DNA of 63,838 bases, filler included, from 7 parts of 7 records of this genome joined end to end with filler, not necessarily neighbours in it; one strand, 5' to 3'. Shown: positions 8,010-58,720, counted from the first letter of the whole stretch. Numbers and translations: made by a program. The notes: a model not told the origin generated them from the letters alone.

Positions 8010-8109
8010 NNNNNNNNNNNNNNNNNNNNNNNNNNNNNNNNNNNNNNNNNNNNTTAATTAATTAANNNNNNNNNNNNNNNNNNNNNNNNNNNNNNNNNNN
8101 NNNNNNNNN
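8010..8109. other. Artificial contig linker (N44-TTAATTAATTAA-N44); same structure at 13339-13438, 21519-21618, 28972-29071, 42316-42415, 58721-58820
   Basis: Identical 100-nt structure with a six-frame-stop 12-mer. Gene content and apparent taxon change across several of the linkers. Confidence 0.98.
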
Positions 8110-42315: not shown

Positions 42316-42416
42316 NNNNNNNNNNNNNNNNNNNNNNNNNNNNNNNNNNNNNNNNNNNNTTAATTAATTAANNNNNNNNNNNNNNNNNNNNNNNNNNNNN
42401 NNNNNNNNNNNNNNNT

Positions 42417-42455
42417 GGAGATGCACCAGCAGCAGAAGAGTCTTCTGAATCTTAA
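42417..42455 (+). CDS. C-terminal fragment of a CDS, probably 50S ribosomal protein L25/Ctc
   Basis: GDAPAAEESSES-stop acidic tail followed by a terminator. rplY commonly lies upstream of pth, so this call rests on synteny only. Confidence 0.45.
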   Translation, partial: GDAPAAEESSES

Positions 42456-42477
42456 AATTCTCAAAACTTTTAATTTT

Positions 42478-42507
42478 AATCCCGACCTTCGCGTCGGGAT
42501 TTTTTTT
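42478..42507 (+). terminator. Intrinsic terminator
   Basis: AATCCCGAC-cttcgc-GTCGGGATT followed by a T tract. Confidence 0.85.
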
Positions 42508-42516
42508 GTCTTAAGA

Positions 42517-42960
42517 ATGGATTTTAAAAGGGTGACATTGTCAGATTATCAACTCTGCATGAAAATGATGAGGGATTTCTACGCTATTGATAATTATCCA
42601 TTTTCTGAATCGAAAGCAAAACACTGTTTTGACGAAATTGTCCACAATGATCATTTGGGACATTTCTGGCTTTTGTATCATAACGGATTACCAATTGGAT
42701 ATATCATTCTCACATTCGGTTTCAGTTTTGAGTATGGAGGAATGGATGCATTCATTGATGAGTTTTATATTATTGAAAGTGAACGAGGAAAGGGTCATGG
42801 CGCTGCTACTCTGGAGAAGTTGAAAGAAAAAGCCAAACAGCTTGGAGTTAAAGCGATTCATTTAGAAGTAGAAAAAACAAATCAGGTTGGTAATAAACTC
42901 TATCATCGTTCTGGGTTTATAGGAAACGATCGAACACTTTTAACACAAAGAATAGATTAA
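42517..42960 (+). CDS. GNAT family N-acetyltransferase
   Basis: GFSFEYGG, IDEFYI, RGKGHG acetyl-CoA motif, LEVEKTN...LY...GF. Start placed after the terminator. Confidence 0.88.
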   Translation: MDFKRVTLSDYQLCMKMMRDFYAIDNYPFSESKAKHCFDEIVHNDHLGHFWLLYHNGLPIGYIILTFGFSFEYGGMDAFIDEFYIIESERGKGHGAATLEKLKEKAKQLGVKAIHLEVEKTNQVGNKLYHRSGFIGNDRTLLTQRID

Positions 42961-43517
42961 TGAAATACCTTATCGTAGGGCTCGGAAACATCGGGCCCGA
43001 GTACGAACTCACACGACACAACATTGGCTTTCTAACGCTAGATCGAATGACTGACCAGGAGGGTGTCGCTTTTGAAATGAATAAGCTGGCATACACGTCC
43101 GAGATAAAGCATAAAGGCCGAACCCTTATTCTCATCAAACCTACCACTTATATGAACCTGAGTGGAAAGGCCGTCAATCATTACCTACAGCAGCATAAGA
43201 TTCCGAAGGAAAAACTACTAGTCATTACAGACGATATCGCCCTCCCCTATGGGAAAATCCGATTGAAGTCCAAAGGTTCAGCCGGGGGGCACAATGGGCT
43301 TAAAAACATTGAACAACTGTGCGGTGGCTCTAACTATCCTCGCCTACGCTTTGGTGTCGGGGATGACTTTCACAAAGGTCAGCAAGTTGATTACGTATTG
43401 AGTCCATTTACCAAACAGGAAATGGATGAGTTGGTGCTAAACATGGATCGAGCGATCGATGCAATTAAGTCGTTCTGCACCATCGGGATGGAGCGTACAA
43501 TGAATCAGTTTAACTGA
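42960..43517 (+). CDS. pth: Peptidyl-tRNA hydrolase
   Basis: LIVGLGNIG...TRHNIGF, KPTTYMNLSG, GSAGGHNGLK, YPRLRFGVG. Confidence 0.97.
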   Translation: MKYLIVGLGNIGPEYELTRHNIGFLTLDRMTDQEGVAFEMNKLAYTSEIKHKGRTLILIKPTTYMNLSGKAVNHYLQQHKIPKEKLLVITDDIALPYGKIRLKSKGSAGGHNGLKNIEQLCGGSNYPRLRFGVGDDFHKGQQVDYVLSPFTKQEMDELVLNMDRAIDAIKSFCTIGMERTMNQFN

Positions 43518-43604
43518 TGTTACATTCACGTTAAATAATGGGAGATTTGTGTTCATGCCTTAGCGGATTCACGGATAGTTTCGTGCTCATAGACAAAAAA
43601 CACC

Positions 43605-46600
43605 ATGAGCACTACATTAAGAAACCTAATCACAGTCCTTTCATTAAGCATTACCTTACTCGCATCTGCTCAGGAGACGCGTATTCATTCCGAAGATGGC
43701 CTATTCCATCATACTCCAAAGGGTGATATTCACATAAATGATTTCGATCCATTCATTCGAAGGTTTCTGAAACTTGAGCAAAATGACCAATTGATTCAGG
43801 TAAGCTCAGATGTTGATATCTCCGGCAACTCTCATATCAAATTTGTACTTATCACCAGTGGTTTAAAAAGAGATCACGAAACGATCATTGTTCATACCAA
43901 CCCAAAAGGAATTATTCTGTTTATAAATGGGGAGTACGTTCCGGTTACAAATCTGCAAGTCAAGCCTTCAATCAATGAGAGTAGCGCACTAGGTAGAGCC
44001 CTGAATCATATTAATGCTGAAAAATACAAATGGGAGACACCAGGAGCCGATGCTAACCTCTATCCAAAAGGTGAATTATTAATATACAATGGATCATTGG
44101 TTTATAAATTTATTGTTTCAGCCACTGTTCCGGAAAGCTCAAATGAAGTTTATGTAGATGCACATACAGGAAAAGTGCTAAGAACAAGTTCGATGATTAA
44201 CCATGATACAGGGATTGCACATACCAGGTATAGTGGTGTTCAGTCGATCGAAACTCATCCAAATGGTAATTCATTCCAATTAACTGATAAAATGAGAGCC
44301 TCAGATATCGAAACATACAACCTATCAAATAGCTCGACAGATTATGGAGTGGCTACCTCCTACTCTGACAATGATAATACCTGGGATGAGTATGGTTCAA
44401 ACAAAGAAGTTCAGGATGCCTTAGATGCTCACTGGGCTGCAGGACAGGTATATGACTATTGGCTCAATATCCATGGGAGAAAGAGCTTTGATGATACAAA
44501 ACTCTTTTCACAGGAAAATGGAGCTAAAATCAAAAGTTATGTACACTATGGAACCAACTCCTCGGGTGCTTCCTGGGATATGAGTACTTGGTCAATGCGA
44601 TTTGGCAATGGTGGTTCGTCCTTTAATGGCAAAACCACATTAGATGCAGTTGCACATGAATTTGCTCATGGAGTAGATCAATTCTCCTCTGCTCTTACTA
44701 ACTACCAGGAATCCGGCGCTCTAGATGAAGGTATTGCCGACATTTGGGCTACCTGTGTGGAGTATTATGTCAATGGCCTCAACATCCTACCACAACCTAA
44801 GGAAATATGGAAATTTCAATCTGAAAATATCATCAATGGAAATTCATTCAGATCTCTGGACAATCCAAATGAAAATAACCATCCGGATACTTATAAGGGA
44901 GATTACTGGTGGTATGGTACTGGAGACAAAAGCGGTATTCATACAAACTGTACCGTAGTTGGTCATTGGTTCTTTCTGGCGTCTGAAGGAGGAAGTGGTG
45001 TAAACGATCATGGTTTTTCGTATTCAGTAAATGGAGTAGGCATTTCAAAGATGGGACAGATTCTATACGAAGCTCAAAAAAATTATTTTACACAAAATAC
45101 CAATTATTATACAGCACGGATTTTAACAACTCAAGCTGCCATAATTCTATTTGGACAATCTTCACCGGAAGCCGCTGCTGTCATAGATGCCTGGGACGCA
45201 GTTGGGGTCACTGATATCTTAGCCAACCAGCCTCAATATTGTATCCCTGAAATTGATACGATAGCCTATAATAGTGAGGAATACTCAATAGATGTGAGGC
45301 CAGAAGACTTTTATCAAAACCAAACATTTCCATTCATCAACACGATGAAAATTTTCTCTGCAAATACTACCTATTTCAAAACCTGGATAGATGTAGACCA
45401 TGATGGGACTTTTGATCCGAGTGAAGAAGTGTTTTCAGGAACACACCCTATACCTAGTTATGAGCAAAATTTCGATATTCCATTAAACACTCAAGTAGGT
45501 TTTACTCGAATTAGACATATTCGAAGTTCTCAACCTATTGGAACAGCCTGTGATAATATTGAAAAAGGAGACATTGAAGATATTATAGTAAATATCTTAC
45601 CAAGTGATTACGGGGCGTGTGCGCCTTATGGAAGAAATAAGTATATAAATGGCCCTTCTTATGCCATCTCATGGATGAAGCTTGAGTCAACTGAAAATTC
45701 CTCCGATTATCTTCTATGTGATCATAACGGGAGTAGCTGTTTGACAAGTGCATTTTCAAATACAGGATATAACCCTATGCCATTGCCGACCTACAACGTG
45801 ACACCTGGAAGTTCATACAAAATTGGACTGGGTGGCACTCATCAGTATAATCCAAGTCTTGCAGAAGCGCACTGGGAAGTTTGGATAGATTATAATCAGG
45901 ACAAGGTATTCGAGGAATCAGAGCTCATCTTCAAAACTTTAGTTAGTAGCTCCAATATTATCCACCACAACTTTGATATTCCTTTTTCTGCTTTGCCAGG
46001 AGAGACCAGAATGAGAGTGAAAGTCAGAAAGTATAATAGCCCGGAGGGGCCATGCGGAGATATTGGTCTTGGTGAAGTGGAAGACTATAAAATCAACATA
46101 CTACCGTGTGAACCTTCCGCTCCTACAGGTATAAAGGTTGCACATCTCCCAAACTCTTTATCAGCCAAGATATTTTGGAATTCTGCAAATGGTGATTATC
46201 GAGTACGGGTGAGACCTACTTCTGACATTTTTTGGGAGAGTATTACAAATACAAATAGCACAAAAATTCTTCAACAATTTGATCATCCGGGAACGACATA
46301 TATAGTGCAGGTAGGCACTGTTTGCCAGGGGCAAGTGGCATGGTCTTCGTCCATATTTACACAAACAAATTGCACCATACCACAGAACGAAGGAGTGAGC
46401 CATGTCACAAGCAGTTCTGCCCAAATAAGCTGGGATGGACAGTTGGATAAAAATGGACAAATGCTGGACTATGTGATTTTTGCAAGGGAAGAACCCACTG
46501 ATCCATTCTATCCTTATTGGGCTGCCTATTATGTAAATAATGATGATAACTACCAATTGACCGGGCTTAAGGCCAACACCAATTATCAATTCAAGGTGAG

Positions 46601-46967
46601 ATCACAATGTGAAATTGGAAGTTCCAACTTCACAGAGGTAGGTACATTTAAAACGAAATATAAATTTTTCTTCAGGAGTGGGTTTGATAATACCACTAAT
46701 GCCGTTGCTGAAAATAGGATTGAAAACCTCAATGGAGACGTAACCTTGTATCCCAATCCGGTTCAGGATAGATTAAAACTTGTTATCTCAAATACTAAAA
46801 ATCCCAGAGCTGCTAACATTTTGGATGTGTCAGGAAGAATTATTCAAACGATATTAATTGACGGCAATACTTCCAGCCATGACGTGTCACAATTAAAACC
46901 AGGGACATACTTCATAAGTATCAAAGTTGAAGAAAAGAGATATAAGGTCAGATTTATAAAAAACTGA
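43605..46967 (+). CDS. T9SS-secreted M4 (thermolysin-family) metallopeptidase with GEVED and fibronectin-III domains
   Basis: Signal peptide, FTP/PepSY propeptide (VYVDAHTG), AHEFAH, ESGALDEGIADI, GIHTN. Two GEVED-like domains (WID...GDIED, GEVEDY), fn3-like domains, T9SS CTD (LYPNPV...LKPGTYF...FIKN). Confidence 0.92.
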   Translation: MSTTLRNLITVLSLSITLLASAQETRIHSEDGLFHHTPKGDIHINDFDPFIRRFLKLEQNDQLIQVSSDVDISGNSHIKFVLITSGLKRDHETIIVHTNPKGIILFINGEYVPVTNLQVKPSINESSALGRALNHINAEKYKWETPGADANLYPKGELLIYNGSLVYKFIVSATVPESSNEVYVDAHTGKVLRTSSMINHDTGIAHTRYSGVQSIETHPNGNSFQLTDKMRASDIETYNLSNSSTDYGVATSYSDNDNTWDEYGSNKEVQDALDAHWAAGQVYDYWLNIHGRKSFDDTKLFSQENGAKIKSYVHYGTNSSGASWDMSTWSMRFGNGGSSFNGKTTLDAVAHEFAHGVDQFSSALTNYQESGALDEGIADIWATCVEYYVNGLNILPQPKEIWKFQSENIINGNSFRSLDNPNENNHPDTYKGDYWWYGTGDKSGIHTNCTVVGHWFFLASEGGSGVNDHGFSYSVNGVGISKMGQILYEAQKNYFTQNTNYYTARILTTQAAIILFGQSSPEAAAVIDAWDAVGVTDILANQPQYCIPEIDTIAYNSEEYSIDVRPEDFYQNQTFPFINTMKIFSANTTYFKTWIDVDHDGTFDPSEEVFSGTHPIPSYEQNFDIPLNTQVGFTRIRHIRSSQPIGTACDNIEKGDIEDIIVNILPSDYGACAPYGRNKYINGPSYAISWMKLESTENSSDYLLCDHNGSSCLTSAFSNTGYNPMPLPTYNVTPGSSYKIGLGGTHQYNPSLAEAHWEVWIDYNQDKVFEESELIFKTLVSSSNIIHHNFDIPFSALPGETRMRVKVRKYNSPEGPCGDIGLGEVEDYKINILPCEPSAPTGIKVAHLPNSLSAKIFWNSANGDYRVRVRPTSDIFWESITNTNSTKILQQFDHPGTTYIVQVGTVCQGQVAWSSSIFTQTNCTIPQNEGVSHVTSSSAQISWDGQLDKNGQMLDYVIFAREEPTDPFYPYWAAYYVNNDDNYQLTGLKANTNYQFKVRSQCEIGSSNFTEVGTFKTKYKFFFRSGFDNTTNAVAENRIENLNGDVTLYPNPVQDRLKLVISNTKNPRAANILDVSGRIIQTILIDGNTSSHDVSQLKPGTYFISIKVEEKRYKVRFIKN

Positions 46968-47072
46968 AGCAATTAAATTGTTTCCTGGTATCAGGATGGA
47001 GCTCACAATGAATGAATTTAATTGAAAAGGATTCAGCCTCAATTCCTTATATTAAAGGATTGAAACCTGACA

Positions 47073-50030
47073 ATGATTCGAAAACTCACCATTTCATTAT
47101 TCATTGCCTTTTTTACGCATGTCTACTACGCACAGGGACAGGTCGACTCTCTGCGTCAGGCATTGCAAAATCAGAAAGAGGATACTTTGAAGGTTCAAAC
47201 TTATTTACAGTTCTTTTATTCTGATCTTTTTTATTCGAACCCGGCAGAGGTCATTGAATTCCTTAAAAAGTCAGCAGACTTATCTAGAAAACTCGGCTTT
47301 AATAAAGGCATTGCAGAAGCTTTCAATTCATTGGGCTATATGTATCGAATCAGAAGTGAAAACGATTCAGCATTTCACTATTTCAACGAAGCATTAATCA
47401 TCTCACAGAATTCTGAATATACCCAGGGCTTACTGGACGCCTATATCGGTTTAGGAAATACAAATAACCAGATTGGTAACTGGAAAGAAGCGTTGGCACA
47501 ATTCAAAAATGCTGAGAAAGTTGCCGAACGAACAAAAAATGATCGAATTGTTGCGAGTGCAAATAATAACATGGGCAACATTAGCCTGGCTCAGGGAGCG
47601 CTTTCGGATGCACTTGAGTACTATCAAAAAGCGGCTGAAAAGGGAACTCCTACTATTCGCGAGGTGGCGTTAATCAATATTGCATTGGTTCATATTGAAT
47701 TAAAGAACTTCCTAAAGGCTCGCGAGTATTTTCAGCAAGCAATTAAAATGTCTGAAATAGCAGGTACTAAATATAACCTGGCATTTATTTATGAACACCT
47801 TGGATCTGTAGAGCAAATGGATGGAAATTCTACCAAGGCTATCGATTATTACAATGAAGCTATCACACTGTTTGAATCGATTGATGAACGATACAACGTC
47901 TCTAACCTTCAGACCAACCTGGCAGATATTTACTTCGAGTCAGGAGATTATAGCAAAGCATTGAAAATGTATAGAACCAGTTTTGCTATCCAGGAAAAAA
48001 TCGACCATTTCGTTGGCCAATGCAATAACTTATTGGGAATTGGTAAAACGCTGATGGCAACCGGAGACTTTCAGGAAAGCGAAGCTGCATTATTAGACGC
48101 AAACAAAATTGCCGATAAACACCAGCTACTTACGGCTAAGGATAACGTCGTACTTTCTCTTAGCACACTGTATCAGGAAATGGGAAATTATGAAAAAGCC
48201 CTTAATTACCATATACAATACAAAATACTTAGTGACAGTTTACTTAATCAAGAAAAATCTAAGCAGATCAACGAACTGGAAACCCAATTTCAAACAACCC
48301 AGAAAGAGCAGGAAATTGATTTACTAAGTGCAGAAAATCAAATTGCTAACCTTCAAATACAAAAGCAACAAAACCTTAGAAACTACCTGCTAATCATCGC
48401 TGTTATCCTGGTTGTTCTTATCGGAGTGGTCTACAATCAGTATAACATCAAGGCAAAGGCCAACAACCGGTTGAAAGAACTCGATCAGCTTAAGACCTCC
48501 TTTTTTACGAACATTTCACACGAATTTCGAACGCCATTATCTCTCATCCTAAGCCCTATACAAAAGCTGTTACAAACCAATCATTCAGGCGAGACACAAA
48601 AAGAATTAAGCCTGATTCATCGGAATGCAACACGTCTGCTTGAATTGATTAATCAGCTACTTGACCTTTCCAAACTGGAAGACGGGAAACTCGAACTCAA
48701 AGTACGAAAAGGCAACATCAAAGAATTTTTGGAAATCAGCATAGCCTCCTTCGAATCTCTTGCCGTCGCTCAAAAGATTCGTTTTCATTCGGACCTGAAT
48801 CAGGTACCGGAAGTGGTATACTTTGATGAAGATAAGGTCCAAAAGATTATAACGAACTTGCTCTCCAATGCTTTTAAATTCACTCCATCTGAAGGAAGCG
48901 TAAGCCTAACCACAACATTTGAAAACGGACAGTTGCTGATTGCTATATCAGATACCGGACCAGGGATTGAGCCTTCCGAATTGAAAAACATTTTTCATCG
49001 GTTTCATCAAAGCTCTGCAACTAATCCCAATGCGGCCGGGACTGGAATTGGGCTCACTCTGACTAAGGAATTGGCAACCTTGCATCATGGAAAAATCGAA
49101 GTTGAAAGCACGCCTGGTAAAGGGAGCACTTTTACATTCATATTTCCCACAAATAAGGCGGCTTATGCAAACTTCGAAATCACAGAAAAAGACGCAGAAA
49201 CAACTACAGCTCTGTCAAGACAGAAACCTGACATTACAGAATCAACTTCCGAAAAGGAAATGCTGGGAACAGATATCCCGGTTGTATTGATTGTTGAGGA
49301 CAATGCAGATTTACGGTTACACATCAGTTCCCTTCTGCAAAAATATTATATCGTTCATGAATCAATACATGGAAGAGAAGGAATCAACGACGCTTTAAAG
49401 CTGGTGCCCGATATCATCATCTCAGACCTGATGATGCCGGAGGCTGATGGAATTACACTCTGCAACGAACTGAAGGTGAATGAGAAAACCAGTCACATCC
49501 CCATTGTTTTGCTCACAGCCAAAGCAGATAAAGAGACAAAGCTGGAAGGACTAACAAAGGGGGCTGACGAATACCTAACCAAACCTTTTGACAATGAAGA
49601 GTTGCTTATCAGGGTTGAAAACCTGATCAAATCAAGAAGCACACTCAAGCAAAAATTCAGTCAGACGTTAAAATTGGAGCCTTCGCAAATCGAGGTGAAT
49701 TCACCCGATGAAGCTTTCATCAGAAAAGCCATGGAAATAGTTGATCAGCATTTATCTGATGAGACTTTTACCGTTGAGGCATTTCAAAAGGAGATGGGAA
49801 TGAGTCGTATGCAGCTTCACAGAAAGCTAAAAGCACTCACTCATTTTTCAGCCAGTGAATTCATCCGGGACCTTCGTCTACAGCGAGCAGCCACCCTCCT
49901 ATCTGGTGGTCACATGAATGTAGCAGAAACAGCCTACAGTTGTGGATTCAACAGCCTCTCCTATTTCACTCAATGTTTCAAAGAAAGGTTTGGATCCACT
50001 CCTTCTCACTTCACAAAAAAAGCGTCCTAA
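47073..50030 (+). CDS. Hybrid two-component system: periplasmic TPR sensor, TM, HisKA, HATPase, receiver, AraC HTH
   Basis: TPR repeats, FFTNISHEFRTPL, NLLSNAFKFT, DTGPGI, GTGIGL, IVEDN...SDLMMP...KPF, SRMQLHRKLK...GFNSLSYF. Confidence 0.95.
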   Translation: MIRKLTISLFIAFFTHVYYAQGQVDSLRQALQNQKEDTLKVQTYLQFFYSDLFYSNPAEVIEFLKKSADLSRKLGFNKGIAEAFNSLGYMYRIRSENDSAFHYFNEALIISQNSEYTQGLLDAYIGLGNTNNQIGNWKEALAQFKNAEKVAERTKNDRIVASANNNMGNISLAQGALSDALEYYQKAAEKGTPTIREVALINIALVHIELKNFLKAREYFQQAIKMSEIAGTKYNLAFIYEHLGSVEQMDGNSTKAIDYYNEAITLFESIDERYNVSNLQTNLADIYFESGDYSKALKMYRTSFAIQEKIDHFVGQCNNLLGIGKTLMATGDFQESEAALLDANKIADKHQLLTAKDNVVLSLSTLYQEMGNYEKALNYHIQYKILSDSLLNQEKSKQINELETQFQTTQKEQEIDLLSAENQIANLQIQKQQNLRNYLLIIAVILVVLIGVVYNQYNIKAKANNRLKELDQLKTSFFTNISHEFRTPLSLILSPIQKLLQTNHSGETQKELSLIHRNATRLLELINQLLDLSKLEDGKLELKVRKGNIKEFLEISIASFESLAVAQKIRFHSDLNQVPEVVYFDEDKVQKIITNLLSNAFKFTPSEGSVSLTTTFENGQLLIAISDTGPGIEPSELKNIFHRFHQSSATNPNAAGTGIGLTLTKELATLHHGKIEVESTPGKGSTFTFIFPTNKAAYANFEITEKDAETTTALSRQKPDITESTSEKEMLGTDIPVVLIVEDNADLRLHISSLLQKYYIVHESIHGREGINDALKLVPDIIISDLMMPEADGITLCNELKVNEKTSHIPIVLLTAKADKETKLEGLTKGADEYLTKPFDNEELLIRVENLIKSRSTLKQKFSQTLKLEPSQIEVNSPDEAFIRKAMEIVDQHLSDETFTVEAFQKEMGMSRMQLHRKLKALTHFSASEFIRDLRLQRAATLLSGGHMNVAETAYSCGFNSLSYFTQCFKERFGSTPSHFTKKAS

Positions 50031-50137
50031 TGGCCTAAAAAAGGCTATGTTACATTTCGATCGATTTTTGGGATATACCCGTAGATCAATCCTGCTTTCA
50101 TCTTCTACATTGGTCTCACCTAATTAAAATGTAGATT

Positions 50138-50602
50138 ATGAAACACCTGAAATTACTCCTCTTGTCCCTGCTGCTGGTAGCATGCTATGGACAGAAATCT
50201 CCTGAAAAACCCAAGCTGGACATCAAGGATGAACTAGCAAAAATCGAACAAACTCGAAATGGTTTTATGCTAGCAATCGAGGAAAAGCGATATCAAGATT
50301 TGGGAAAGTATACTACCGCTAATATGGAAAGAGTTGGACCTGCAACTACTAAATGGATGGAGATGTACAAACTAGGACAAGATCGGGGTGCTTTTCCCTA
50401 CGATCGTATCATTATGAATCCCAGGGAAACTGTGATCGTAAGTGATTCGGTGGCTTATGATTACGGAACCAGTCAGGTATTCTATACCAATGAAACCGGT
50501 GAAGAAGTCATGCTCACCAACTCATTCCTTGTTATTATGAAGAAAGTTCAGGACGGAAGCTGGAGGTTACATAGAGAAGTAGCTTCAGGTCAGGTGAAGT
50601 AA
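50138..50602 (+). CDS. NTF2-like (DUF4440) lipoprotein
   Basis: Lipobox LLVAC. VAYDYG and C-terminal KKVQDGSWRLHRE typical of the NTF2 fold. Confidence 0.75.
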   Translation: MKHLKLLLLSLLLVACYGQKSPEKPKLDIKDELAKIEQTRNGFMLAIEEKRYQDLGKYTTANMERVGPATTKWMEMYKLGQDRGAFPYDRIIMNPRETVIVSDSVAYDYGTSQVFYTNETGEEVMLTNSFLVIMKKVQDGSWRLHREVASGQVK

Positions 50603-50608
50603 AATATA

Positions 50609-51205
50609 ATGACGATGAAAAGAATACTAGCCATTATAACATTAGGTTCCTCGTTTTTAGCTTTTGCTCAGCAGGATACCCTGATGTCGAAACCGACATT
50701 ATCCAGGGAAGAAATCAACAAAGAGATTGCGCGTAAATTCTATGAAGACCTCTGGTTTACCAACAACACGGATAAGTACGCTGAGTATGTAGCCGATAAC
50801 TACGTAGTACATGACATAGGAGACCGAAAGGATGTGATTGAGCCTGCAATTGAACAAAAAATAGTGGCAGATCGATTCTGGGATAACGGTACCTGGAATT
50901 CAAAGATCAATTATCAAATTGCTGAAGGTGACCTGGTGGCTACACGATGGGAAGCCACCTATAAACCAACCACCTTTTTAGGTAAGGTAGTTTTTGGGGC
51001 TGGCACCATTCCGATAATTAACGTATTCCGGTTCAATGAAGAAGGAAAAATAGTAGAGATATGGAATCACCGCCATGATATTGATACCAATCAAACCATG
51101 ATATTTACCATCAAGGGATTGTTGATTGGTTTACTCATCGCTCTGATTCCCACTTTCATTGCTTTCCGCCTAAAGCGCAAAATTAAACAGCTACAATCCA
51201 CTTGA
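50609..51205 (+). CDS. SnoaL/ester-cyclase-like NTF2-fold protein with signal peptide and C-terminal TM anchor
   Basis: NKEIARKFYEDLW, QIAEGDLVATRW, FRFNEEGKIVEIW, hydrophobic GLLIGLLIALIPTFIAF followed by RLKRK. Confidence 0.78.
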   Translation: MTMKRILAIITLGSSFLAFAQQDTLMSKPTLSREEINKEIARKFYEDLWFTNNTDKYAEYVADNYVVHDIGDRKDVIEPAIEQKIVADRFWDNGTWNSKINYQIAEGDLVATRWEATYKPTTFLGKVVFGAGTIPIINVFRFNEEGKIVEIWNHRHDIDTNQTMIFTIKGLLIGLLIALIPTFIAFRLKRKIKQLQST

Positions 51206-51237
51206 TCTGATTCAACCAGCAATAAACCCGAATCACG

Positions 51238-51969
51238 ATGCACAAATACAAATCCCTTCATCTCTGGATGCTCATCCCAATGGTCTTCATGCAGCTAGGA
51301 ATAGCTATGGACTATTGGGGTGACTTTACCGACAATGCCTGGTCCGTACACATCCATTACTGGACAGGCACCATCTGGTATCTCTACCTTATTATCCAAC
51401 CTTACTATGCTACACATGGTAAGCTGGAAAAGCACCGGACCAATGGTATCATTGGGATGTTTCTGGCTGGTGGTGTATGTCTCACTGCTTTCAGTATGAT
51501 GTATCGGGATATTGAAAACGTAAATATGTCTGCCGCCAACCCGGAACGATTTGGGCCTTTTACTCCCGATTTCTTCTATGGAGTGGCTGCCTGCGAAATC
51601 CCCATGATACTGATTTTCGGATATGCGGTGATCATGAGTATCATCAAACGCAAGCAACTGGAAGACCATGCCTGGTGGCTTGTTTCTACAGTATTTATCA
51701 TAATGATGCCAGCTTTAGGAAGAGGAGTTCAGCTTTTCTTCATCATTCCCCAGGCTGATAAGTGGCCTAACATTGATATCGTGTTTCCTACTCTATTGAG
51801 TCAATTCATTATCATTCTTCTGATATTGATCACTGCATGGAAATATGATAAGCTTAAACATCCAGCTACCTATTGGGCTTTGGGTATCAACGTTTACTGT
51901 CTTTTCATATTCCAGATAGGCGAAACCAAATGGGTTCAGGATGTATTAAATGCGCTCTTAAAAGGATAA
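51238..51969 (+). CDS. Polytopic membrane protein (DUF2306-like)
   Basis: About 7 TM helices with H-x6-W...IIQP, HRTNG and H-x-WW motifs. Confidence 0.65.
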   Translation: MHKYKSLHLWMLIPMVFMQLGIAMDYWGDFTDNAWSVHIHYWTGTIWYLYLIIQPYYATHGKLEKHRTNGIIGMFLAGGVCLTAFSMMYRDIENVNMSAANPERFGPFTPDFFYGVAACEIPMILIFGYAVIMSIIKRKQLEDHAWWLVSTVFIIMMPALGRGVQLFFIIPQADKWPNIDIVFPTLLSQFIIILLILITAWKYDKLKHPATYWALGINVYCLFIFQIGETKWVQDVLNALLKG

Positions 51970-51991
51970 CTAAACCTCATTCTAATTAGGT

Positions 51992-52615
51992 ATGAAAAAG
52001 AACTTCTTCACCAAAAACTACTTTTTTGCTCTCAGTGTAACCATCCTGATCATGAGCCTCATTGCCTTCTCTGACAATATGTTTACAGATGTGGATCAAC
52101 CAAGCAATAGTGACCCTCGAATGATCATTCATGGATTGATCATGTTTGCTTGGACCATCGTACTAATTCTACAAACCAATCATATCAGAAAACTCAATGT
52201 GAAACAACATATGCGCTTTGGGATGATTGGTTTCGCAATCGCATGCATGATGCTGGTGAGTATATTCTATCTCTCCTATATAGGTCCAGATTTCGCAGAT
52301 CTTCCCTTCTTCGGCAAAGCCAATCGAATTTTTATTCCTGCATTTGCGGTCATGATGGCATTTGCTTACCTCAAGCGGGAGAAAAAGATGCTACACCAGT
52401 ACCTCATTTTTGCAGGTATGATGCTAGCTATGGAGCCCATCCTGAGTCGTTTTTGTGGCAACTTAGGAATAGACCCGGGCGCTTATGCCGGACTTATCTG
52501 GCTGTTTCTATGGGTCTCCATTTTCGTCTACGACATTGTTTCAAGAAGAAAACTCCACCCAGTTCTTTATGTTGGGTTTATTTTCTGGATAGCTGTATAT
52601 ATTATGGTTGCTTAG
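51992..52615 (+). CDS. Polytopic membrane protein, related in pattern to the preceding gene
   Basis: IHGLIMFAW...LQT, HMRFG, LHQYL, RKLHPV. About 7 TM helices. Confidence 0.65.
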   Translation: MKKNFFTKNYFFALSVTILIMSLIAFSDNMFTDVDQPSNSDPRMIIHGLIMFAWTIVLILQTNHIRKLNVKQHMRFGMIGFAIACMMLVSIFYLSYIGPDFADLPFFGKANRIFIPAFAVMMAFAYLKREKKMLHQYLIFAGMMLAMEPILSRFCGNLGIDPGAYAGLIWLFLWVSIFVYDIVSRRKLHPVLYVGFIFWIAVYIMVA

Positions 52616-52630
52616 AGTTTCGAATCGGTT

Positions 52631-52666
52631 TAGCCCCTGTTAGGGTTTGGAACCCTAACAGGGCTA
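52631..52666. repeat. REP-like inverted repeat / bidirectional terminator between convergent operons
   Basis: TAGCCCCTGTTAGGGTT-tgg-AACCCTAACAGGGCTA. Confidence 0.75.
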
Positions 52667-52669
52667 TTA

Positions 52670-53341
52670 TTAAAGATGCAATCCACACTCGGTTTTCTGA
52701 TTATTCAACCATCTCCCTTCCCGATGATCGCCCTTTTCAGTACAGTGGGTACATCCCACTGAGCCGTATCCCTGGTAGTAAAGTTTGTTTTGTGGCAGCT
52801 CATAAATGGTATGATATAAGCTCACCTCTTCTGCTGTCATGTCGATGATGGGATGAAATTTGAGCAGTTCATCCCTTGGTTCAAAAATCCGAAGGTGCTG
52901 ACGATTGGCATTCTGAAATCTTAAAAGTCCCGAAATCCAAACATCCTTTCCTTTCTTCAACTGATTCGTTGGATCTACTTTGTTAATAAAGCAGCACAGA
53001 TCGTTTTGGTATTTCCACGTTTGATTATCCTGGGTGAAGCGATGCTTGTTTTCCTGCGCTCCCACTTCCACAATATTCAAACCAAGCTTCTGCTTGATCT
53101 CTTCTTTGTACTCGAGCGTTTCTTCAAACAAATACCCGGTATTGACCAGGTAGACGGGATGCTTAGGTGCTGCCTTACTGATCATATGTAATAGAATGGC
53201 AGAGGTGGTTCCAAACGAAGATGTCATCAATATTCGATCATGATCAAATTCAGTAAAGAGCCGCTCCATCCGCTCGAGCGGACTCAAGGGATGGTAGCGC
53301 TCATTTAACCGAACCAAATTTTCTTGTTTATTAGACCTCAT
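52670..53341 (-). CDS. cysH: APS/PAPS reductase
   Basis: TSSFG, NTGYLFEET, DLCCFINKV, WISGL, GYGSVGCTHCT, REGRW, KTECGLH. Confidence 0.92.
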   Translation of the reverse strand: MRSNKQENLVRLNERYHPLSPLERMERLFTEFDHDRILMTSSFGTTSAILLHMISKAAPKHPVYLVNTGYLFEETLEYKEEIKQKLGLNIVEVGAQENKHRFTQDNQTWKYQNDLCCFINKVDPTNQLKKGKDVWISGLLRFQNANRQHLRIFEPRDELLKFHPIIDMTAEEVSLYHTIYELPQNKLYYQGYGSVGCTHCTEKGDHREGRWLNNQKTECGLHL

Positions 53342-53921
53342 TTCTGTCAATCAATGATTTGGTAATACCATTCAACGCTTTCACTTTGAATGAGAAATCT
53401 CCTTTCAGCCGATCCCGAATCACCTTCAGGTTCTGAAGTAGCAGGTCTGTTTCATCCGGAAGTGTCTCATTCAGCACCTCTTTCAATCGTTTAGAAAATG
53501 TTGGGGACTTTCCGTTTGTACTAATACCGATTTTTAGATCACCTTTCTTCACCGTCGATCCTAAATAGAAATCACATAAACCCGGAGTGTCAGCTACGTT
53601 TACAAGCAGATGCTTTTTCCGAGCTATTGACCTGATCTTTGTGTGCAGTGCGTGATCATCAGTGGCCAGTATAACCAGGTCTTTTCCTTTCAGATCACTC
53701 CTCCGAAACGATCGCTCTATTAATTTGATCTGTCTGGATAATTCCTGTCTTTGCCTGACTTCTGCATTGAACTTTTTGGCTACAATTGTAACGTTAGCTT
53801 CATGATCGTTTCTCAGTAAAGCATCCAACTTTTCCAGCCCTACATTTCCTCCTCCAACGATCAGCGTCTGAATCTGATTGAGTTTCAGGAATATTGGAAA
53901 TAATGAATTTCCTATGGTCAT
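53331..53921 (-). CDS. Precorrin-2 dehydrogenase/sirohydrochlorin ferrochelatase (SirC/Met8, CysG N-terminal-like)
   Basis: LFPIFLKL, IVGGGNVG, VNVADTPGLCDFY, ISTNGKSP. Confidence 0.92.
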   Translation of the reverse strand: MTIGNSLFPIFLKLNQIQTLIVGGGNVGLEKLDALLRNDHEANVTIVAKKFNAEVRQRQELSRQIKLIERSFRRSDLKGKDLVILATDDHALHTKIRSIARKKHLLVNVADTPGLCDFYLGSTVKKGDLKIGISTNGKSPTFSKRLKEVLNETLPDETDLLLQNLKVIRDRLKGDFSFKVKALNGITKSLIDRNEV

Positions 53922-54670
53922 GCTACTTTATGTTTTTTGATTGATAATTGATTGGTTTGAGTTGTAAATGCAGCTCCTTCTCCAAAAATTAAGAGTGCCG
54001 GGGATGCTGGCTTTTGATCTCTGGCTTCATCAAGAATTGAATCCACCGTACCAGCAATTACCTGTGCCTCAGCTAGCGAGCCATTGCTGATAATCGCAAC
54101 AGGTAAATCTCCCCGACCCTCTTTTAGATAGTGAGCAACCACCACATCAAGCTTTGACAAACCCATAAATATCAAAGCAGTAGATGCATGTTTGGCAGCT
54201 TTCCTCACCTCGCCACTCACCTTTCCATCAGCCGAAGTAGCGGTCAGGATTGAAAAACCCTGATTGACTCCTCGACACGTAAGTGGGATATTGTATAACC
54301 CCGGCAACATGATGCTGCTAATCCCAATGACCACTTCAGTCGGAATACCATGTGCCTGGGCAAACTGTATTTCTTCAAAGCCTCGCCCAAAGACAAAAGG
54401 GTCTCCCCCCTTTAGTCGCACGACTCGTCCTTTGCTATATGCTTTTTCGACAATCAGCTGGTTAATTCTTTGTTGAGGCACGCTTGATTTTCCGGCTCTT
54501 TTCCCTACCGAAATTTGCTCAGCACAAGGTGCGTATCTAAGTAGTTCCTTAGAAACCAATGAATCGTAAAGCACAACATCCGCTTGCTCCAGTGCCTTCA
54601 CGCCTTTCACGGTAATCAGATCCGGATCTCCAGGACCAGCTCCTACCAACGTTAGTTTTTGATCGCTCAT
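53918..54670 (-). CDS. cobA: Uroporphyrinogen-III C-methyltransferase
   Basis: LVGAGPGDPDLITVKG, VVRLKGGDPFVFGRG, IPLTCRG, FMG. Confidence 0.95.
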   Translation of the reverse strand: MSDQKLTLVGAGPGDPDLITVKGVKALEQADVVLYDSLVSKELLRYAPCAEQISVGKRAGKSSVPQQRINQLIVEKAYSKGRVVRLKGGDPFVFGRGFEEIQFAQAHGIPTEVVIGISSIMLPGLYNIPLTCRGVNQGFSILTATSADGKVSGEVRKAAKHASTALIFMGLSKLDVVVAHYLKEGRGDLPVAIISNGSLAEAQVIAGTVDSILDEARDQKPASPALLIFGEGAAFTTQTNQLSIKKHKVA

Positions 54671-54672
54671 AG

Positions 54673-56796
54673 CTATGCTTTGTAATGGTTACTGATGACC
54701 AACTTTTCTTTTGATTCACCCTCCTGAGATCGAAAAGCAAATACCTGTTCAATGAATGTTGAAGCATTGTCGAGGTAGTTTTTCGCGAAAGCCTGATTTG
54801 GTGCATACCTATTGATTTTAAGTACTTCCTGAGCAAAAGATTCTGCTATTGGAAAAGCGGCCTCATCAGAAAAGTGTGACTGAAAATCATCGATGATGCC
54901 CTTGTGGGTATTGCATTGAATATCCTTGCTCAGCAACAATGACTTGGCACCAATCACCAAAGCACTGTAGCTATGATAGATCGCATTGGCCCATTTTTGC
55001 TTTTCAAAGTCTTCAATGGCCCATTCAATGCGCTCCTTTGCATCCCCAAGAATGGTATCTACCAAATCCAACACCACTCCGGCACACTCTCCCACCCCTA
55101 CCTCAGGTACGAACTCCTCCGCATGTCCCCAATCCTGAAATTCGTCATCACAGATGTGAGACAGATCAGCTAGTGGCTTGAGTAGTTCATAAAAATATTT
55201 CTTACCCTCTCGCCGGAAGTATTGATTGAAATATTCGGTCTCTTCTGCATTGGCTTCATAGTCATCCAGAAGTGCTCGAACTACATCAGGGATTCGTTTT
55301 GTTGGAATCTTGATGACCTTTTCAGCGATATATCCATGATGATCCGGTTCAATTCCACCACCGATGACCACCTGCATTGCCGGCACCACTTTGTCTCCAT
55401 TCTTGATACTACTTCCATGAAAACCAATATTGGCGATCATGTGCTGGCCACAGGAATTCATGCATCCGCTGATCTTGATCTTGATCTGTGATTCATCAAT
55501 CAAGTGTGGATACTCCTCATGGATAACTCGTTCAAGTTCAGTAGCCAGACGCGTACTATTGGTCACACCTAAAGCGCAGGTATCAGTTCCCGGGCATGAA
55601 GTGACATCTGCCAGTGTATCAAATCCGGGATTAGCCAGCCCCAATTCATTCAGCGAAGCAAAAAGCGCCGGAAGACTTTCTCCGTTTACAAACCTGAATA
55701 GTAATCCCTGATTGATGGTAATTCGAATGTCCTTTGAAGCATAGGACTCTGCAATCAAGGCAATTCTACGTGCCACTTTAGCAGAAATGTTTCCTAGTGA
55801 TACTTTGATTTTGACTGCATAAAAACCCTTTTGCTTTTGCTCCACCACATTGATTCTTCTCCATTTTTCGAAAGCATCCTTATCTTGAATTTTATAATTG
55901 GAATATGGACGTTTTAAAGCCGGATAACTTGTTTCCTCATATGAGATTGGGTGGACCTGGTCAGGTAAAGCTTTATACTCTTCATCTACCAATCTGAGAA
56001 AACCATCCAGTCCCAAGCCTTTCTTCGGGTCCACTAAAAATTTCAAACGGGCTTTATGTCGCCTCTCCCGTTCACCATGTCTGTCAAAGACCCTTAAACC
56101 CGCCTCAATAAATGGAATGAGCTTTTCTTCCGGTAAAAAGTCATGAGCCACCTGTCCAAAGAAGGTCTGGGCACCCAGGCCACCACCAACCAAAACTTTA
56201 AATCCACGGATTCCACTTTTCACTTTCGGGGCAAACCCGAAATCATGGATATAGGTGAAGGCCTCATCGTGATCACTGGAAGAAAATGCAATTTTGATTT
56301 TTCTTCCCATGTCCTGGCAAATTGGGTTTCTTAGAAAGTATTCGAATACCTCATGCGCATAGGGTGTGACATCAAAAGGCTCTTCCGGATCAACTCCGGC
56401 CAATGGAGAGGCCGTTACATTTCGAACTGTATTGCCACACGCTTCTCTTAACGTAACATTTACACGCTCCAGTCTGGACCAGATTTCCGGTGTATCATCC
56501 AATGGGATGTGATGCAACTGAATATTTTGACGAGTAGTTAAATGGAGGTTGCCATTGGTATACTCATCTGCTATGTTGGCAATGACGCGAATTTGATCCG
56601 GTGTGACTTTTCCATAAGGAAGTTTAATGCGTAGCATCTGAACTCCTTGCTGTCGCTGACCATATACTCCTCGGGTTAACCTGAACGCCTTAAACCGCTC
56701 CTCCGGGATTGTCCCCAGATGAAAAGAACCTATTTTTTCCTGAAGCTCTTCTATATCTCTCTTTGCTTCGTTTGATATCGTTGTAGTAGATGACAT
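54673..56796 (-). CDS. Siroheme/[4Fe-4S] sulfite (nitrite/sulfite family) reductase with C-terminal HEPN domain
   Basis: GVYGQRQ, HLTTRQNIQ, ACGNTVRN, CPGTDTC and SGCMNSCGQH cluster ligands. HEPN-like AIYHSY...AKSLL...THKGII tail. Operon context indicates sulfite as substrate. Confidence 0.92.
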   Translation of the reverse strand: MSSTTTISNEAKRDIEELQEKIGSFHLGTIPEERFKAFRLTRGVYGQRQQGVQMLRIKLPYGKVTPDQIRVIANIADEYTNGNLHLTTRQNIQLHHIPLDDTPEIWSRLERVNVTLREACGNTVRNVTASPLAGVDPEEPFDVTPYAHEVFEYFLRNPICQDMGRKIKIAFSSSDHDEAFTYIHDFGFAPKVKSGIRGFKVLVGGGLGAQTFFGQVAHDFLPEEKLIPFIEAGLRVFDRHGERERRHKARLKFLVDPKKGLGLDGFLRLVDEEYKALPDQVHPISYEETSYPALKRPYSNYKIQDKDAFEKWRRINVVEQKQKGFYAVKIKVSLGNISAKVARRIALIAESYASKDIRITINQGLLFRFVNGESLPALFASLNELGLANPGFDTLADVTSCPGTDTCALGVTNSTRLATELERVIHEEYPHLIDESQIKIKISGCMNSCGQHMIANIGFHGSSIKNGDKVVPAMQVVIGGGIEPDHHGYIAEKVIKIPTKRIPDVVRALLDDYEANAEETEYFNQYFRREGKKYFYELLKPLADLSHICDDEFQDWGHAEEFVPEVGVGECAGVVLDLVDTILGDAKERIEWAIEDFEKQKWANAIYHSYSALVIGAKSLLLSKDIQCNTHKGIIDDFQSHFSDEAAFPIAESFAQEVLKINRYAPNQAFAKNYLDNASTFIEQVFAFRSQEGESKEKLVISNHYKA

Positions 56797-56814
56797 ATTT
56801 TCTTTATTAGGAAT

Positions 56815-56850
56815 AAAAAAACCCTGATGACTCAGTGGCCACCAGGGTTT
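56815..56850 (-). terminator. Intrinsic terminator (attenuator) immediately upstream of the sulfite reductase gene
   Basis: On the minus strand AAACCCUGGUGGC-cacuga-GUCAUCAGGGUUU-UUUU: 13-bp stem with a U7 tract, ending ~19 nt before the ATG at 56796. Confidence 0.88.
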
Positions 56851-56870
56851 GTATTCGTTTTTATTTTATT

Positions 56871-56969
56871 TTACAAATACCTCTTTTTAGGTGACCTTAG
56901 CACTATTCTCCAGCACATGTACATACACATGCAACAGATGCCTATCCATGTCAGGTGTTTGGCTTTCAT
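56871..56969 (-). CDS. Putative Cys/Met-rich attenuator leader peptide (32 aa)
   Basis: MKAKHLTWIGICCMCMYMCWRIVLRSPKKRYL-stop. The ATG overlaps the metZ stop (ATGA), and the 3' end overlaps an antiterminator arm. Confidence 0.8.
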   Translation of the reverse strand: MKAKHLTWIGICCMCMYMCWRIVLRSPKKRYL

Positions 56970-58174
56970 GACGACACTAGTTTTTCAATTCTTGGATTCA
57001 TTTGTTTTTCCTTACTGGCTTGTAGTGCCTGCTCAATGTCATTGAGAATGTCATTCACATTTTCAAGACCTACAGAAATGCGCACCAATCCCGGAGCAAT
57101 TCCCACACTAGCCCGTTCTTCTTCTGATAGTTTGCTATGTGTAGTACTTGCCGGGTGTGTAACAGTCGTTCGCGTATCGCCCAGATTGGGTGTCAGACTG
57201 AGCATATTTAGATTATCTAAAAAACGCACGCCTCTCTCTAATCCATCTTTTACGATGAACGTCACGATCGCTCCCCCGTGCTTCATTTGCTTTTTGGCTA
57301 GCTCCCGCTGAGGATGACTTTCCAGAAACGGATACTTGACCAATTCCAATTCTTCATGCCCTTCGAGATATGAGGCGATCTTATAGGCATTTTCACAGTG
57401 TTTTTCCATTCGCACTGCGAGCGTTTCTAAACTTTTGCTTAGCACCCATGCATTGAATGGGGACAAGCTCGGACCCGTGTGGCGGGCGAAGAATCGTAGC
57501 TCCTCGATCAATTCCTTCTTCCCTACAATGGCACCCCCTAGTGTTCTGCCTTGTCCATCGATAAACTTGGTGGCAGAATGAGTGACAATATGCGCACCCC
57601 ACTCAATCGGGTTTTGCAAATAAGGGGTAGCAAAGCAGTTATCAACATTCAGAATGAGGTTGTGCTTTTCAGCCAGTTGACCCAAGTACTCGAGATCAAC
57701 GATATCCAGTCCAGGATTGGAAGGTGTCTCTACAAAGATCATTTTCGTTTTCGGAGTGATCAGGCTCTCCCATTTTTCCGGCCGGTGAAGATTGAAATAG
57801 GAATGATCGATTCCCCACTTTGGAAATACCTTCGTAAAAAGCTGATGCGTGGACCCAAACAAGGCACGAGACGCCAAAACATGATCGCCATGCTGTAATA
57901 GCCCCGCCATACTGGTGAACATTGCCGACATACCTGTTGCAGTGGCTAATCCATCTTCCGCTCCTTCCAGGTAACAGAGCTTATGGATAAACTCATCGGT
58001 GTTGGGATTAGAGTACCGGGAATAAATGTTTCCTGGAATCTCATCGTTAAATTTAGCCCTGGCCTCCTCCGCATTGTCGAAGGTGAATGAGCTGGTGAGA
58101 TATACCGGGGCAGAATGCTCCTTCTGGGAAGCATTCGACAGTTGAGTGCGAATAGCTTGCGTTTCAAAATTCAT
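56966..58174 (-). CDS. metZ: PLP-dependent trans-sulfuration enzyme, O-succinylhomoserine sulfhydrylase-like
   Basis: YSRYSNPN, TGMSAM, LFGST, ETPSNP, VDNCFATP, HSATKFIDGQGR (PLP lysine), NLGDTRT...HPASTTH. Confidence 0.85.
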   Translation of the reverse strand: MNFETQAIRTQLSNASQKEHSAPVYLTSSFTFDNAEEARAKFNDEIPGNIYSRYSNPNTDEFIHKLCYLEGAEDGLATATGMSAMFTSMAGLLQHGDHVLASRALFGSTHQLFTKVFPKWGIDHSYFNLHRPEKWESLITPKTKMIFVETPSNPGLDIVDLEYLGQLAEKHNLILNVDNCFATPYLQNPIEWGAHIVTHSATKFIDGQGRTLGGAIVGKKELIEELRFFARHTGPSLSPFNAWVLSKSLETLAVRMEKHCENAYKIASYLEGHEELELVKYPFLESHPQRELAKKQMKHGGAIVTFIVKDGLERGVRFLDNLNMLSLTPNLGDTRTTVTHPASTTHSKLSEEERASVGIAPGLVRISVGLENVNDILNDIEQALQASKEKQMNPRIEKLVSS

Positions 58175-58242
58175 TTGAACGGATTTAATAAATTGGAAAA
58201 AGGAAAAGTAGGGACGGACCTGCTTTAGGAGCGGTCAAAAAA

Positions 58243-58323
58243 TTAACAGCAGCAACAGCACATAGATCGAGCGTGCGTGTTGAGAAATTGGATGTCCTGA
58301 ATGTGTTTATGTGCTTTTTTCAT
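58243..58323 (-). CDS. Putative polycysteine leader peptide (26 aa)
   Basis: MKKAHKHIQDIQFLNTHARSMCCCCC-stop (ATG TGC TGT TGC TGC TGT TAA), between the SAM riboswitch and metZ. Confidence 0.82.
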   Translation of the reverse strand: MKKAHKHIQDIQFLNTHARSMCCCCC

Positions 58324-58325
58324 AA

Positions 58326-58422
58326 TTTATATTCACTTTAAAAGTTCAGGAATTAGCACCTTGGTTTGGTTACCAGGTTGCTAGCACATCAACGAGCCTG
58401 TCTCTCCGTGCTTCTTTATAAA
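58326..58422 (-). ncRNA. SAM-I riboswitch
   Basis: P1 UUUAUA/UAUAAA, AAGA, P2 GCAC..GUGC with kink-turn GA/UGA, pseudoknot CAGG/CCUG, P3 UAGCAACC...GGUGCUA, AUUCC, short P4. Lies upstream of a Met-synthesis gene. Confidence 0.9.
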
Positions 58423-58597
58423 TTTTATCTCTCCATTGCTAAAAAGATGCGCCAAAACTGAACTAAAGATTTTAAACTTCCAAAAACTTTTTCGAAAAAA
58501 ATTTCTTTGCAAGTAACCTTTCTGCTAGTCGGAAGTATTTCTAAAAGTGCAACTATTATTCGTTTAAAGCGTCTTTAAACCAACTCAACTACTCAAA

Positions 58598-58720
58598 ATG
58601 AAGTACTACCTGCGAATTACCTTGCGCAATTTTTTGCGTCACAAAGTTTCCTCACTCATCAATTTAATCGGACTAACGACCGGATTGACCTGTGCCTTTT
58701 TCATCTACCTCTGGGTGCAG
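58598..58720 (+). CDS. MacB/FtsX-type ABC transporter permease, 3'-partial
   Basis: MKYYLRITLRNFLRHKVSSLINLIGLTTGLTCAFFIYLWVQ, a typical Bacteroidota ABC permease N-terminus. Confidence 0.85.

Follow-up and report, generated by a model that had tools for sequence, protein, structure and literature searches.

A candidate cysteine- and methionine-sensing attenuator downstream of metZ and ahead of the sulfite reductase genes in a Bacteroidota operon

Leader-peptide attenuators are known in their classical form from the enterobacterial trp, his, leu, thr, pheA and ilv operons. A summary of them is given in the introductory part of 10.1101/834739. The subject here is an element at positions 56815-56969 of a stretch of DNA of 63,838 nucleotides (nt) from a marine member of the Bacteroidota, hereafter the window: a 32-codon open reading frame (ORF), called leader 2, which follows a metZ-like gene and is itself followed by an intrinsic terminator and then by genes of sulfate assimilation. 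It is probably an attenuator of transcription that works through the ribosome and responds to charged tRNA-Cys, and probably to tRNA-Met as well, serving as a valve in an operon headed by an S-adenosylmethionine (SAM) riboswitch, between metZ and the reductase-cobA-sirohaem synthase-cysH genes. The valve most likely opens sulfur assimilation only when cysteine or methionine runs short. The element resembles the classical attenuators in its short ORF, rich in codons for the regulating amino acid, in its intrinsic terminator just before the regulated genes and in an antiterminator that shares a strand with the terminator; the position of the ribosome would set the outcome. It differs from them in that leader 2 would sense Cys (together with Met), which is absent from the classical cases; in that it is placed within an operon, with an overlap between its start codon and the preceding gene's stop; in that it has no 1:2 anti-antiterminator; and in its host phylum, Bacteroidota.

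Short ORFs with Cys codons have come to attention in several other groups. The uORFC-8-2 motif of the Rhodobacterales, as presented by Brewer et al. (2021, PMC8632094), has a Cys upstream ORF (uORF) before cysS and then an intrinsic terminator; ribosome-mediated attenuation responding to Cys-tRNA was proposed. That order of elements, a Cys-codon uORF and then an intrinsic terminator, recurs at leader 2. However, uORFC-8-2 has two tandem Cys codons and no Met, controls a tRNA synthetase gene, and is an alphaproteobacterial 5' leader; it has no sequence or model in common with leader 2, for which Rfam gives nothing above threshold. Canestrari et al. (10.1101/834739) describe the mycobacterial polycysteine ORFs as leaderless and free of an intrinsic terminator; these ORFs sequester the downstream ribosome-binding site and so control translation. 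For Actinobacteria, Seliverstov et al. (2005, PMC1262725) predicted leader peptides with Cys runs, found terminators lacking and suggested Rho. Like these leaders, the present ones set a Cys run in a tiny ORF before cysteine or sulfur genes, where it may be read as a sensor of charged tRNA-Cys. Unlike the leaderless mycobacterial ORFs, leader 2 is internal to an operon and has a canonical terminator and antiterminator, and it does not belong to that class. A further mini-ORF at the head of the same operon, leader 1, stands nearer to the actinobacterial type: its Cys run is at the stop codon, and no terminator comes after it.

The operon head has a parallel of another kind. The leader of Salmonella mgtA combines a Mg2+ riboswitch and a proline-rich mini-ORF, mgtL, in one RNA, and here a ligand riboswitch (SAM) is likewise joined to a putatively codon-sensing mini-ORF (poly-Cys). 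The ligands and the amino acids differ; moreover, the start of the ORF here abuts the closing helix of the aptamer, and a second, terminator-based leader occurs one gene later. A literature search, with most subscription journals outside its reach, found no description of the element in Bacteroidota or of a translationally coupled internal leader. According to 10.1101/834739, attenuation by a uORF had not previously been described for cysteine; the mycobacterial case reported there acts on translation.

The original prediction, made from the sequence alone, held that the leader ATG overlaps the metZ TGA, that seven of eight consecutive codons specify Cys or Met (CCMCMYMC), and that two nested pairings precede a 13-bp terminator with a U7 tract. 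All of these features are present where it placed them (Table 1). The metZ-like ORF (58174..56966) ends with TGA at 56968-56966, and with the A of the leader start at 56969 the junction reads ATGA; the seven Cys or Met codons fall within codons 12-19. GGTCACC begins 16 nt past the last Cys codon (56915-56913) and can pair with GGTGGCC over 7 bp, one of them G-U; nested within this helix, GTATTTGT (56880-56873) pairs with ACGAATAC (56858-56851), and the leader stop codon, UAA (56873-56871), lies in the 5' arm of the nested hairpin. The terminator helix (56850..56819) has 13 pairs, followed by T7. As the reductase ATG comes 18 nt past the U tract, the reductase promoter must be upstream of the terminator.

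Chance is a poor source for such a leader. A small ORF with seven Cys or Met codons in eight was found in none of 1620 dinucleotide shuffles of 81 upstream regions, where the maximum reached was five. The 171-nt region as a whole folds at -44.5 kcal/mol (z = -2.30), a value equalled by 4/200 shuffles, and the stretch after the Cys codons, taken with the terminator 5' arm and loop, gives -17.6 vs -10.2 in shuffles (p = 0.03). Rfam release 15, searched over 56805..56975, yielded nothing at the gathering threshold; the best scores in a permissive search, L10_leader (27 bits vs 44) and STnc40 (24 vs 45), were both sub-threshold and were rejected as identities of the element.

The 81 upstream regions are those of the window and of 80 further loci encoding the same reductase. 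Mini-ORFs were accepted if they started with ATG, had 6-70 codons with at least three Cys in eight codons, and lay within 450 nt upstream. Such an ORF is found in 63/81 regions, against 4.0% of the 1620 shuffles and 9/81 antisense controls; in 60/81 loci, from Cytophagales and Saprospiraceae/Chitinophagales, it is combined with a hairpin/T-run terminator, giving 70 units. Two of these were dropped as spurious second calls (L012, L051), and the remaining 68 were used for the tests below. An in-frame upstream ATG is available for 84 of 92 TGY runs in the Cys frame, vs 6 and 25 in the other frames; by this measure the Cys frame is probably the one translated. Outside the Cys(/Met) run, the leader peptides vary freely in length and sequence across the family. 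The leader ORF always precedes sulfur-assimilation genes.

Loci without an upstream metZ often have two tandem poly-Cys leaders, many of them with their own terminator (L007-L013, L018, L059-L061, L064, L068, L070-L072, L075 and L079).

The units also speak to the antiterminator. The region that begins at the last Cys codon and runs as far as the terminator loop outdoes 100 shuffles at p <= 0.05 in 45/68 units, and a duplex test with the terminator arm and loop is passed by 39/68. In a swap test, in which both sequences are real, the leader 3' region was paired with its own and with unrelated terminator arms: the own terminator was best in 24/68, in the top 5% in 36/68 and in the top 10% in 50/68 (median rank 0.047; window 0.051), and among 12 mutually unrelated representatives nine were in the top 5%. 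A covariance model, R1, was built from seven sequences to include the outer helix (GGUCACC/GGUGGCC type) and the nested hairpin; apart from one spurious antisense match it finds the leader-terminator site and nothing else, in 19 sources. In the R1 alignment 84% of cells pair vs 62.6% in shuffles, and none of 500 shuffles reaches 84%; when the partners are slid by 1-3 columns, pairing falls to 39-57%. Co-variation in homologues, which the original prediction had named as a check, appears in this model-fitted alignment as both-sided changes in 15/15 antiterminator pairs. The element thus has an antiterminator that shares a strand with its terminator and is backed by co-variation. A MAFFT alignment of 13 divergent attenuators was structurally inconsistent and was not used for counting.

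Within Ekhidna, the genus closest to the window, the terminator is nearly invariant and the last leader codons, KRYL, are invariant at the nucleotide level. The outer helix is paired in 34/35 cells in five Ekhidna sequences; L002 has the sole compensatory change, C-G to U-A, and L006 shows two changes that affect one partner each. At the position of the nested hairpin the relatives have a hairpin of different sequence.

Folding with ribosome footprints shows how such a switch might be thrown. The ribosome was assumed to cover the A-site codon with 15 nt on its 5' side and 12 nt on its 3' side. In RNA reaching to just before the terminator 3' arm, all seven antiterminator pairs form whichever of codons 12-20 occupies the A site, as the original prediction had proposed for a ribosome stalled on the Cys/Met codons. 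Pairing is blocked when the A site lies at 56903..56879, and at no other position; none of the seven pairs then forms. When the stop codon occupies the A site, the footprint extends over 56888..56861 and the 5' arm of the nested hairpin is melted. The nascent RNA without a ribosome forms the antiterminator with probability 1.00. The Cys/Met codons form a hairpin of their own and do not pair with GGUCACC; that is, there is no anti-antiterminator or pause hairpin of the trp (1:2) type, the untranslated leader folds into the antiterminator, and the default is read-through. To this extent the geometry departs from the textbook one that had been claimed for it.

Two further observations concern possible pausing. 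The Cys/Met codon block (56914-56933, minus strand) folds as an 8-bp hairpin, GCAUGUGU-AUGU-ACAUGUGC, and L002 differs in the hairpin over its Cys codons; this could be a pause hairpin, or a chance product of TG/CA-rich codons. In addition, a GTT(A/G)TTT-like motif is present at or just past the leader stop (56873-56882 in the window, GGTATTTG), where it supplies the 5' half of the nested hairpin, and at the matching place in L004, L005, L017, L021, L023, L025, L027 and L028. It resembles the TTNTTT motif of NusG-dependent pausing in Bacillus, and could mark a pause by which polymerase and ribosome are kept in step.

The proposed course of events would be as follows. RNA polymerase continues out of metZ, presumably by read-through; the ribosome that finishes metZ would re-initiate at ATGA and translate the 32-codon leader; if Cys and Met are plentiful, it would trail the polymerase through codons 23-32, masking GGUCACC and melting the nested hairpin, and then park on the stop codon within that hairpin; the terminator arms would pair and transcription would stop at U7. 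If Cys-tRNA or Met-tRNA is scarce, the ribosome would stall within codons 12-19 and leave GGUCACC free; this would pair with GGUGGCC the moment the latter emerges, and the nested hairpin would act as a clamp; the terminator would be blocked and the polymerase would enter the reductase operon. A leader with no ribosome would form the antiterminator by default, so that termination calls for a ribosome following the polymerase closely. The hand-off from metZ at ATGA would deliver that ribosome, which may explain the conserved overlap.

A role for methionine beside cysteine is suggested by the composition of the runs. Among residues other than Cys within the Cys runs of the family, Met leads by a wide margin, with 40/125 (32%) vs 105/1618 (6.5%) elsewhere in the peptides, and it stands strictly inside the Cys run in 26/68 units. 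Dual sensing of Cys and Met is plausible, as the regulated genes feed sulfide both to cysteine synthesis and to a MetZ-type sulfhydrylase.

Placement within the operon is a feature by which leader 2 departs from the classical 5' position directly behind a promoter: its ATG overlaps the stop of a 402-codon gene. The arrangement was originally called unusual. It is indeed inside an operon, but within the clade it is common. A metZ-like gene ends less than 700 nt upstream, on the same strand, in 42/81 loci, and 29 of these 42 have the leader. The ATGA overlap occurs in 12 of the 29 metZ-linked leaders and in at least five lineages (the window, four Ekhidna loci, L017/L032, L019, L023 and three Fulvivirga loci); in 10/29 the gap between metZ and leader is 0-16 nt, and in 7/29 it is 22-183 nt. 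Thirteen metZ-linked loci have no ATG-started leader, and in 11 of them there is just a spacer of 20-63 nt with no terminator, so that metZ and the reductase plausibly form one transcription unit in this clade. Bacteroidota ribosomes, according to PMC9976891, make no use of Shine-Dalgarno pairing.

Promoters were sought on the operon strand from 56700 to the end of the contig. The pattern used was a relaxed form of the Bacteroidota -33/-7 motif, which is not validated for this genus; one site was found, weak, 29 nt upstream of the SAM aptamer. RNA data come from a single run, in which a metatranscriptome contig of 362 nt and depth 2.9, from a relative of ~90% identity, corresponds to 56864-57223. 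It spans the 3' end of metZ and the leader, cannot show single transcripts or transcript ends, and is evidence neither way.

A different way to understand the locus is as an ordinary 5' attenuator with its own promoter in the 3' end of metZ: initiation would be independent, ATGA would reflect tight packing, and metZ transcripts would end at the terminator. Several loci have tandem leaders, each with its own terminator, so the module can act as a 5' element; 31/60 unit loci have no metZ-like gene upstream; and the seven loci with gaps of 22-183 nt fit the same idea. Intragenic promoters may escape notice at the sequence level, and the strict scan for the Bacteroidota promoter motif TAnnTTTG is uninformative even where a promoter must exist (0/29 metZ-linked loci and 3/29 others). 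This account is nevertheless unlikely. ATGA or a gap of at most 16 nt is found in 22/29 metZ-linked leaders, and these come from several lineages; the operon strand has no -33/-7-like site from the SAM aptamer to the leader, a weak argument; the 11 relatives with metZ and reductase 20-63 nt apart and no terminator between them point to one transcription unit; and an antiterminator that forms by default fits a design in need of reliable ribosome delivery.

It might also be supposed that the product is what matters, as a functional Cys-rich micropeptide that binds metals or acts in redox chemistry, or else that the RNA binds a protein or ligand, the codon content carrying no signal. Conservation of the ORF, in frame, and the nucleotide invariance of the KRYL codons of Ekhidna would be expected on this view; but what the family keeps is the Cys(/Met) run, with the rest free to vary, and the invariant 3' codons coincide with an arm of the nested hairpin, so that constraint on the RNA accounts for their invariance. 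Since, besides, the ORF is always followed by a terminator co-varying with the ORF 3' end and always lies upstream of sulfur-assimilation genes, and no Rfam family matches (the L10_leader score above being the best), this is very improbable. A plain constitutive terminator of metZ beside a chance open frame would account for the strength of the hairpin (13 bp, U7, -18.9 kcal/mol), and for the terminator being the minimum-energy fold in every full-length state. It would leave no room for a promoter in the 18 nt before the reductase ATG; it would have to produce by accident a codon block that the shuffles never produced; and the pairing of ORF and terminator is conserved and co-varying in 60/81 loci. 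It is scarcely credible.

The attenuator loaded from metZ has its own difficulties, and these points weigh against it. The promoter that could lie in the 3' end of metZ and the thin RNA coverage have been mentioned. Eighteen of the 81 upstream regions have no Cys-rich ATG-started mini-ORF, and many of the loci are related, so that the counts are not of independent events. The R1 alignment was fitted to the structure of the model, is biased towards it, and holds one spurious antisense row; the co-variation within Ekhidna alone is not significant, as 116/500 shuffles reach it (n=5). For the window by itself the antiterminator is marginally better than chance (fold p = 0.03, duplex p = 0.07-0.085): the case for it owes its strength to the relatives. 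A ribosome at the stop codon was expected to cover GGUCACC, and here footprint folding, which bore out the effect of stalling, goes the other way: the footprint ends 2 nt short, and RNAfold still forms the antiterminator. Closure of the helix around a ribosome parked there, whose bulk folding programs do not represent, would presumably be sterically excluded; in L004, L017, L025 and L027 the stop codon adjoins the antiterminator strand, so that a parked ribosome would cover it directly. Lastly, full-length RNA favours the terminator at any ribosome position (-25.4 vs -21.4 kcal/mol). The switch must therefore be kinetic, as in classical attenuators, and the model depends on that argument. Set beside these, the core of the original prediction (a Cys/Met leader with competing helices, within an operon and loaded from the gene upstream) has the support of the units in 60/81 loci, of the co-variation and of the 29/42 metZ-linked leaders.

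The operon has a second control region, at its head, which the original description missed. The SAM-I aptamer there scores 75.8 bits vs a gathering score of 44.4 (E = 6.7e-17, model positions 1-108), and a SAM riboswitch stands upstream of metZ in 32/36 related loci searched. Leader 1, the second poly-Cys mini-ORF, has its ATG directly after the closing-helix strand of the aptamer; among 33 sources with a riboswitch, 29 have a Cys-rich ORF starting within ~10 nt of the aptamer 3' end, though one of the 29 is weak. A terminator scan after the aptamer found no canonical terminator in the window, nor in almost all of the 33 sources. One may speculate that SAM gates translation of this second sensor of Cys, whose own action might be exerted by Rho or on translation. 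A consensus fold spanning the interval from aptamer to metZ gave a long-range helix without any compensatory change, which was set aside.

Similar pairs of elements occur elsewhere in Ekhidna. At L102 (1300-1670) and L097, in two Ekhidna genomes, a SAM-like aptamer, recognised by eye, is followed immediately by a conserved mini-ORF ending CMCCCCSNR or CMCCCCSCR before its stop codon, upstream of a second O-acetylhomoserine sulfhydrylase-like (metY-like) gene. A genome-wide search of two Ekhidna genomes for the pattern TGYTGYTGYTGY, with 18-21 matches per genome and 28 loci inspected, gave mostly out-of-frame matches within genes; beyond the operon's own leader it turned up one other conserved poly-Cys ORF, behind a second SAM aptamer.

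Taken together, the two control regions might make up a three-checkpoint sulfur sensor of a kind not previously described: a SAM-gated poly-Cys mini-ORF that may act by way of Rho or translation, a Cys and Met terminator switch, and a pause hairpin replaced by re-initiation from metZ at ATGA. This wider interpretation is offered tentatively, as one that may well prove wrong.

The window is not one molecule: it consists of seven contigs, joined by N44-TTAATTAATTAA-N44 linkers at 8010, 13339, 21519, 28972, 42316 and 58721. The contig of interest (42416-58720; 16.3 kb) has 41% G+C, and all the operon features are on its minus strand; the six others have 50-60% G+C, and the bin may be mixed. The encoded sulfite reductase finds its best matches in Ekhidna genomes (Cytophagales, Bacteroidota), with amino-acid identities of 97%, 91%, 86% and 77%. 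The metZ-like protein matches Cys_Met_Meta_PP (E = 4e-129); its best NCBIfam model, NF006003, O-succinylhomoserine sulfhydrylase, scores 515 bits, slightly below the cut-off of 522. The regulated genes downstream of leader 2 are, by profile matches, genes of sulfate assimilation. The 707-aa reductase has a C-terminal extension of ~170 residues past its NIR_SIR domains, a length conserved in all 80 relatives; residues 583-639 give a weak HEPN match (19.9 bits, below the cut-off of 22).

Table 1. Coordinates of the operon features, in window positions, from the operon head downstream
Feature	Position	Strand	Basis or remark
Promoter-like site, TTTG-N20-CAGTTTTG	58453..58484	-	Relaxed Bacteroidota -33/-7 pattern; weak
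SAM-I riboswitch aptamer, operon head	58324..58424	-	RF00162
Leader 1, 26-codon ORF MKKAHKHIQDIQFLNTHARSMCCCCC, ending MCCCCC and stop	58243..58323	-	ATG directly after aptamer 3' (P1) strand
metZ-like gene, O-succinylhomoserine sulfhydrylase family, 402 aa	56966..58174	-	Cys_Met_Meta_PP
Leader 2, 32-codon ORF MKAKHLTWIGICCMCMYMCWRIVLRSPKKRYL and stop	56871..56969	-	ATG overlaps metZ TGA as ATGA
Sensor block, codons 12-19, C C M C M Y M C	56913..56936	-	Codon reading
Antiterminator 5' strand, GGUCACC	56890..56896	-	Sequence, footprint folds, covariance alignment
Nested A/U-rich hairpin, GUAUUUGU/ACGAAUAC	56851..56880	-	Folding; counterpart hairpin, of other sequence, in relatives
Antiterminator 3' strand, GGUGGCC, inside terminator 5' arm	56837..56843	-	Sequence, folds, covariance alignment
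Intrinsic terminator, 13-bp stem, 6-nt loop, U7 tract	56815..56850	-	-18.9 kcal/mol
NirA-family sulfite/nitrite reductase haemoprotein, 707 aa, first regulated gene	54673..56796	-	Domain and family profiles
cobA-like methylase, regulated operon	53918..54670	-	Profile matches
Sirohaem synthase N-domain protein, regulated operon	53331..53921	-	Profile matches
cysH-like phosphoadenosine phosphosulfate/adenosine phosphosulfate (PAPS/APS) reductase, regulated operon	52670..53341	-	Profile matches

If leader 2 works as proposed, many Bacteroidota share a conserved attenuator for Cys(/Met) that relies on a terminator. Its internal site and the conserved overlap of start and stop codons would provide a natural test of whether a ribosome handed over from the preceding gene can replace a synchronising pause hairpin; the operon as a whole would offer a test of how a SAM riboswitch is combined with sensors of tRNA charging. 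For genome annotation, dozens of unannotated mini-ORFs are flagged. The operon bears on how abundant marine bacteria balance sulfite reduction between cysteine and methionine synthesis; should the three-checkpoint interpretation be true, the Met codons would let a shortage of methionine open sulfite reduction for the sulfide-consuming MetZ reaction.

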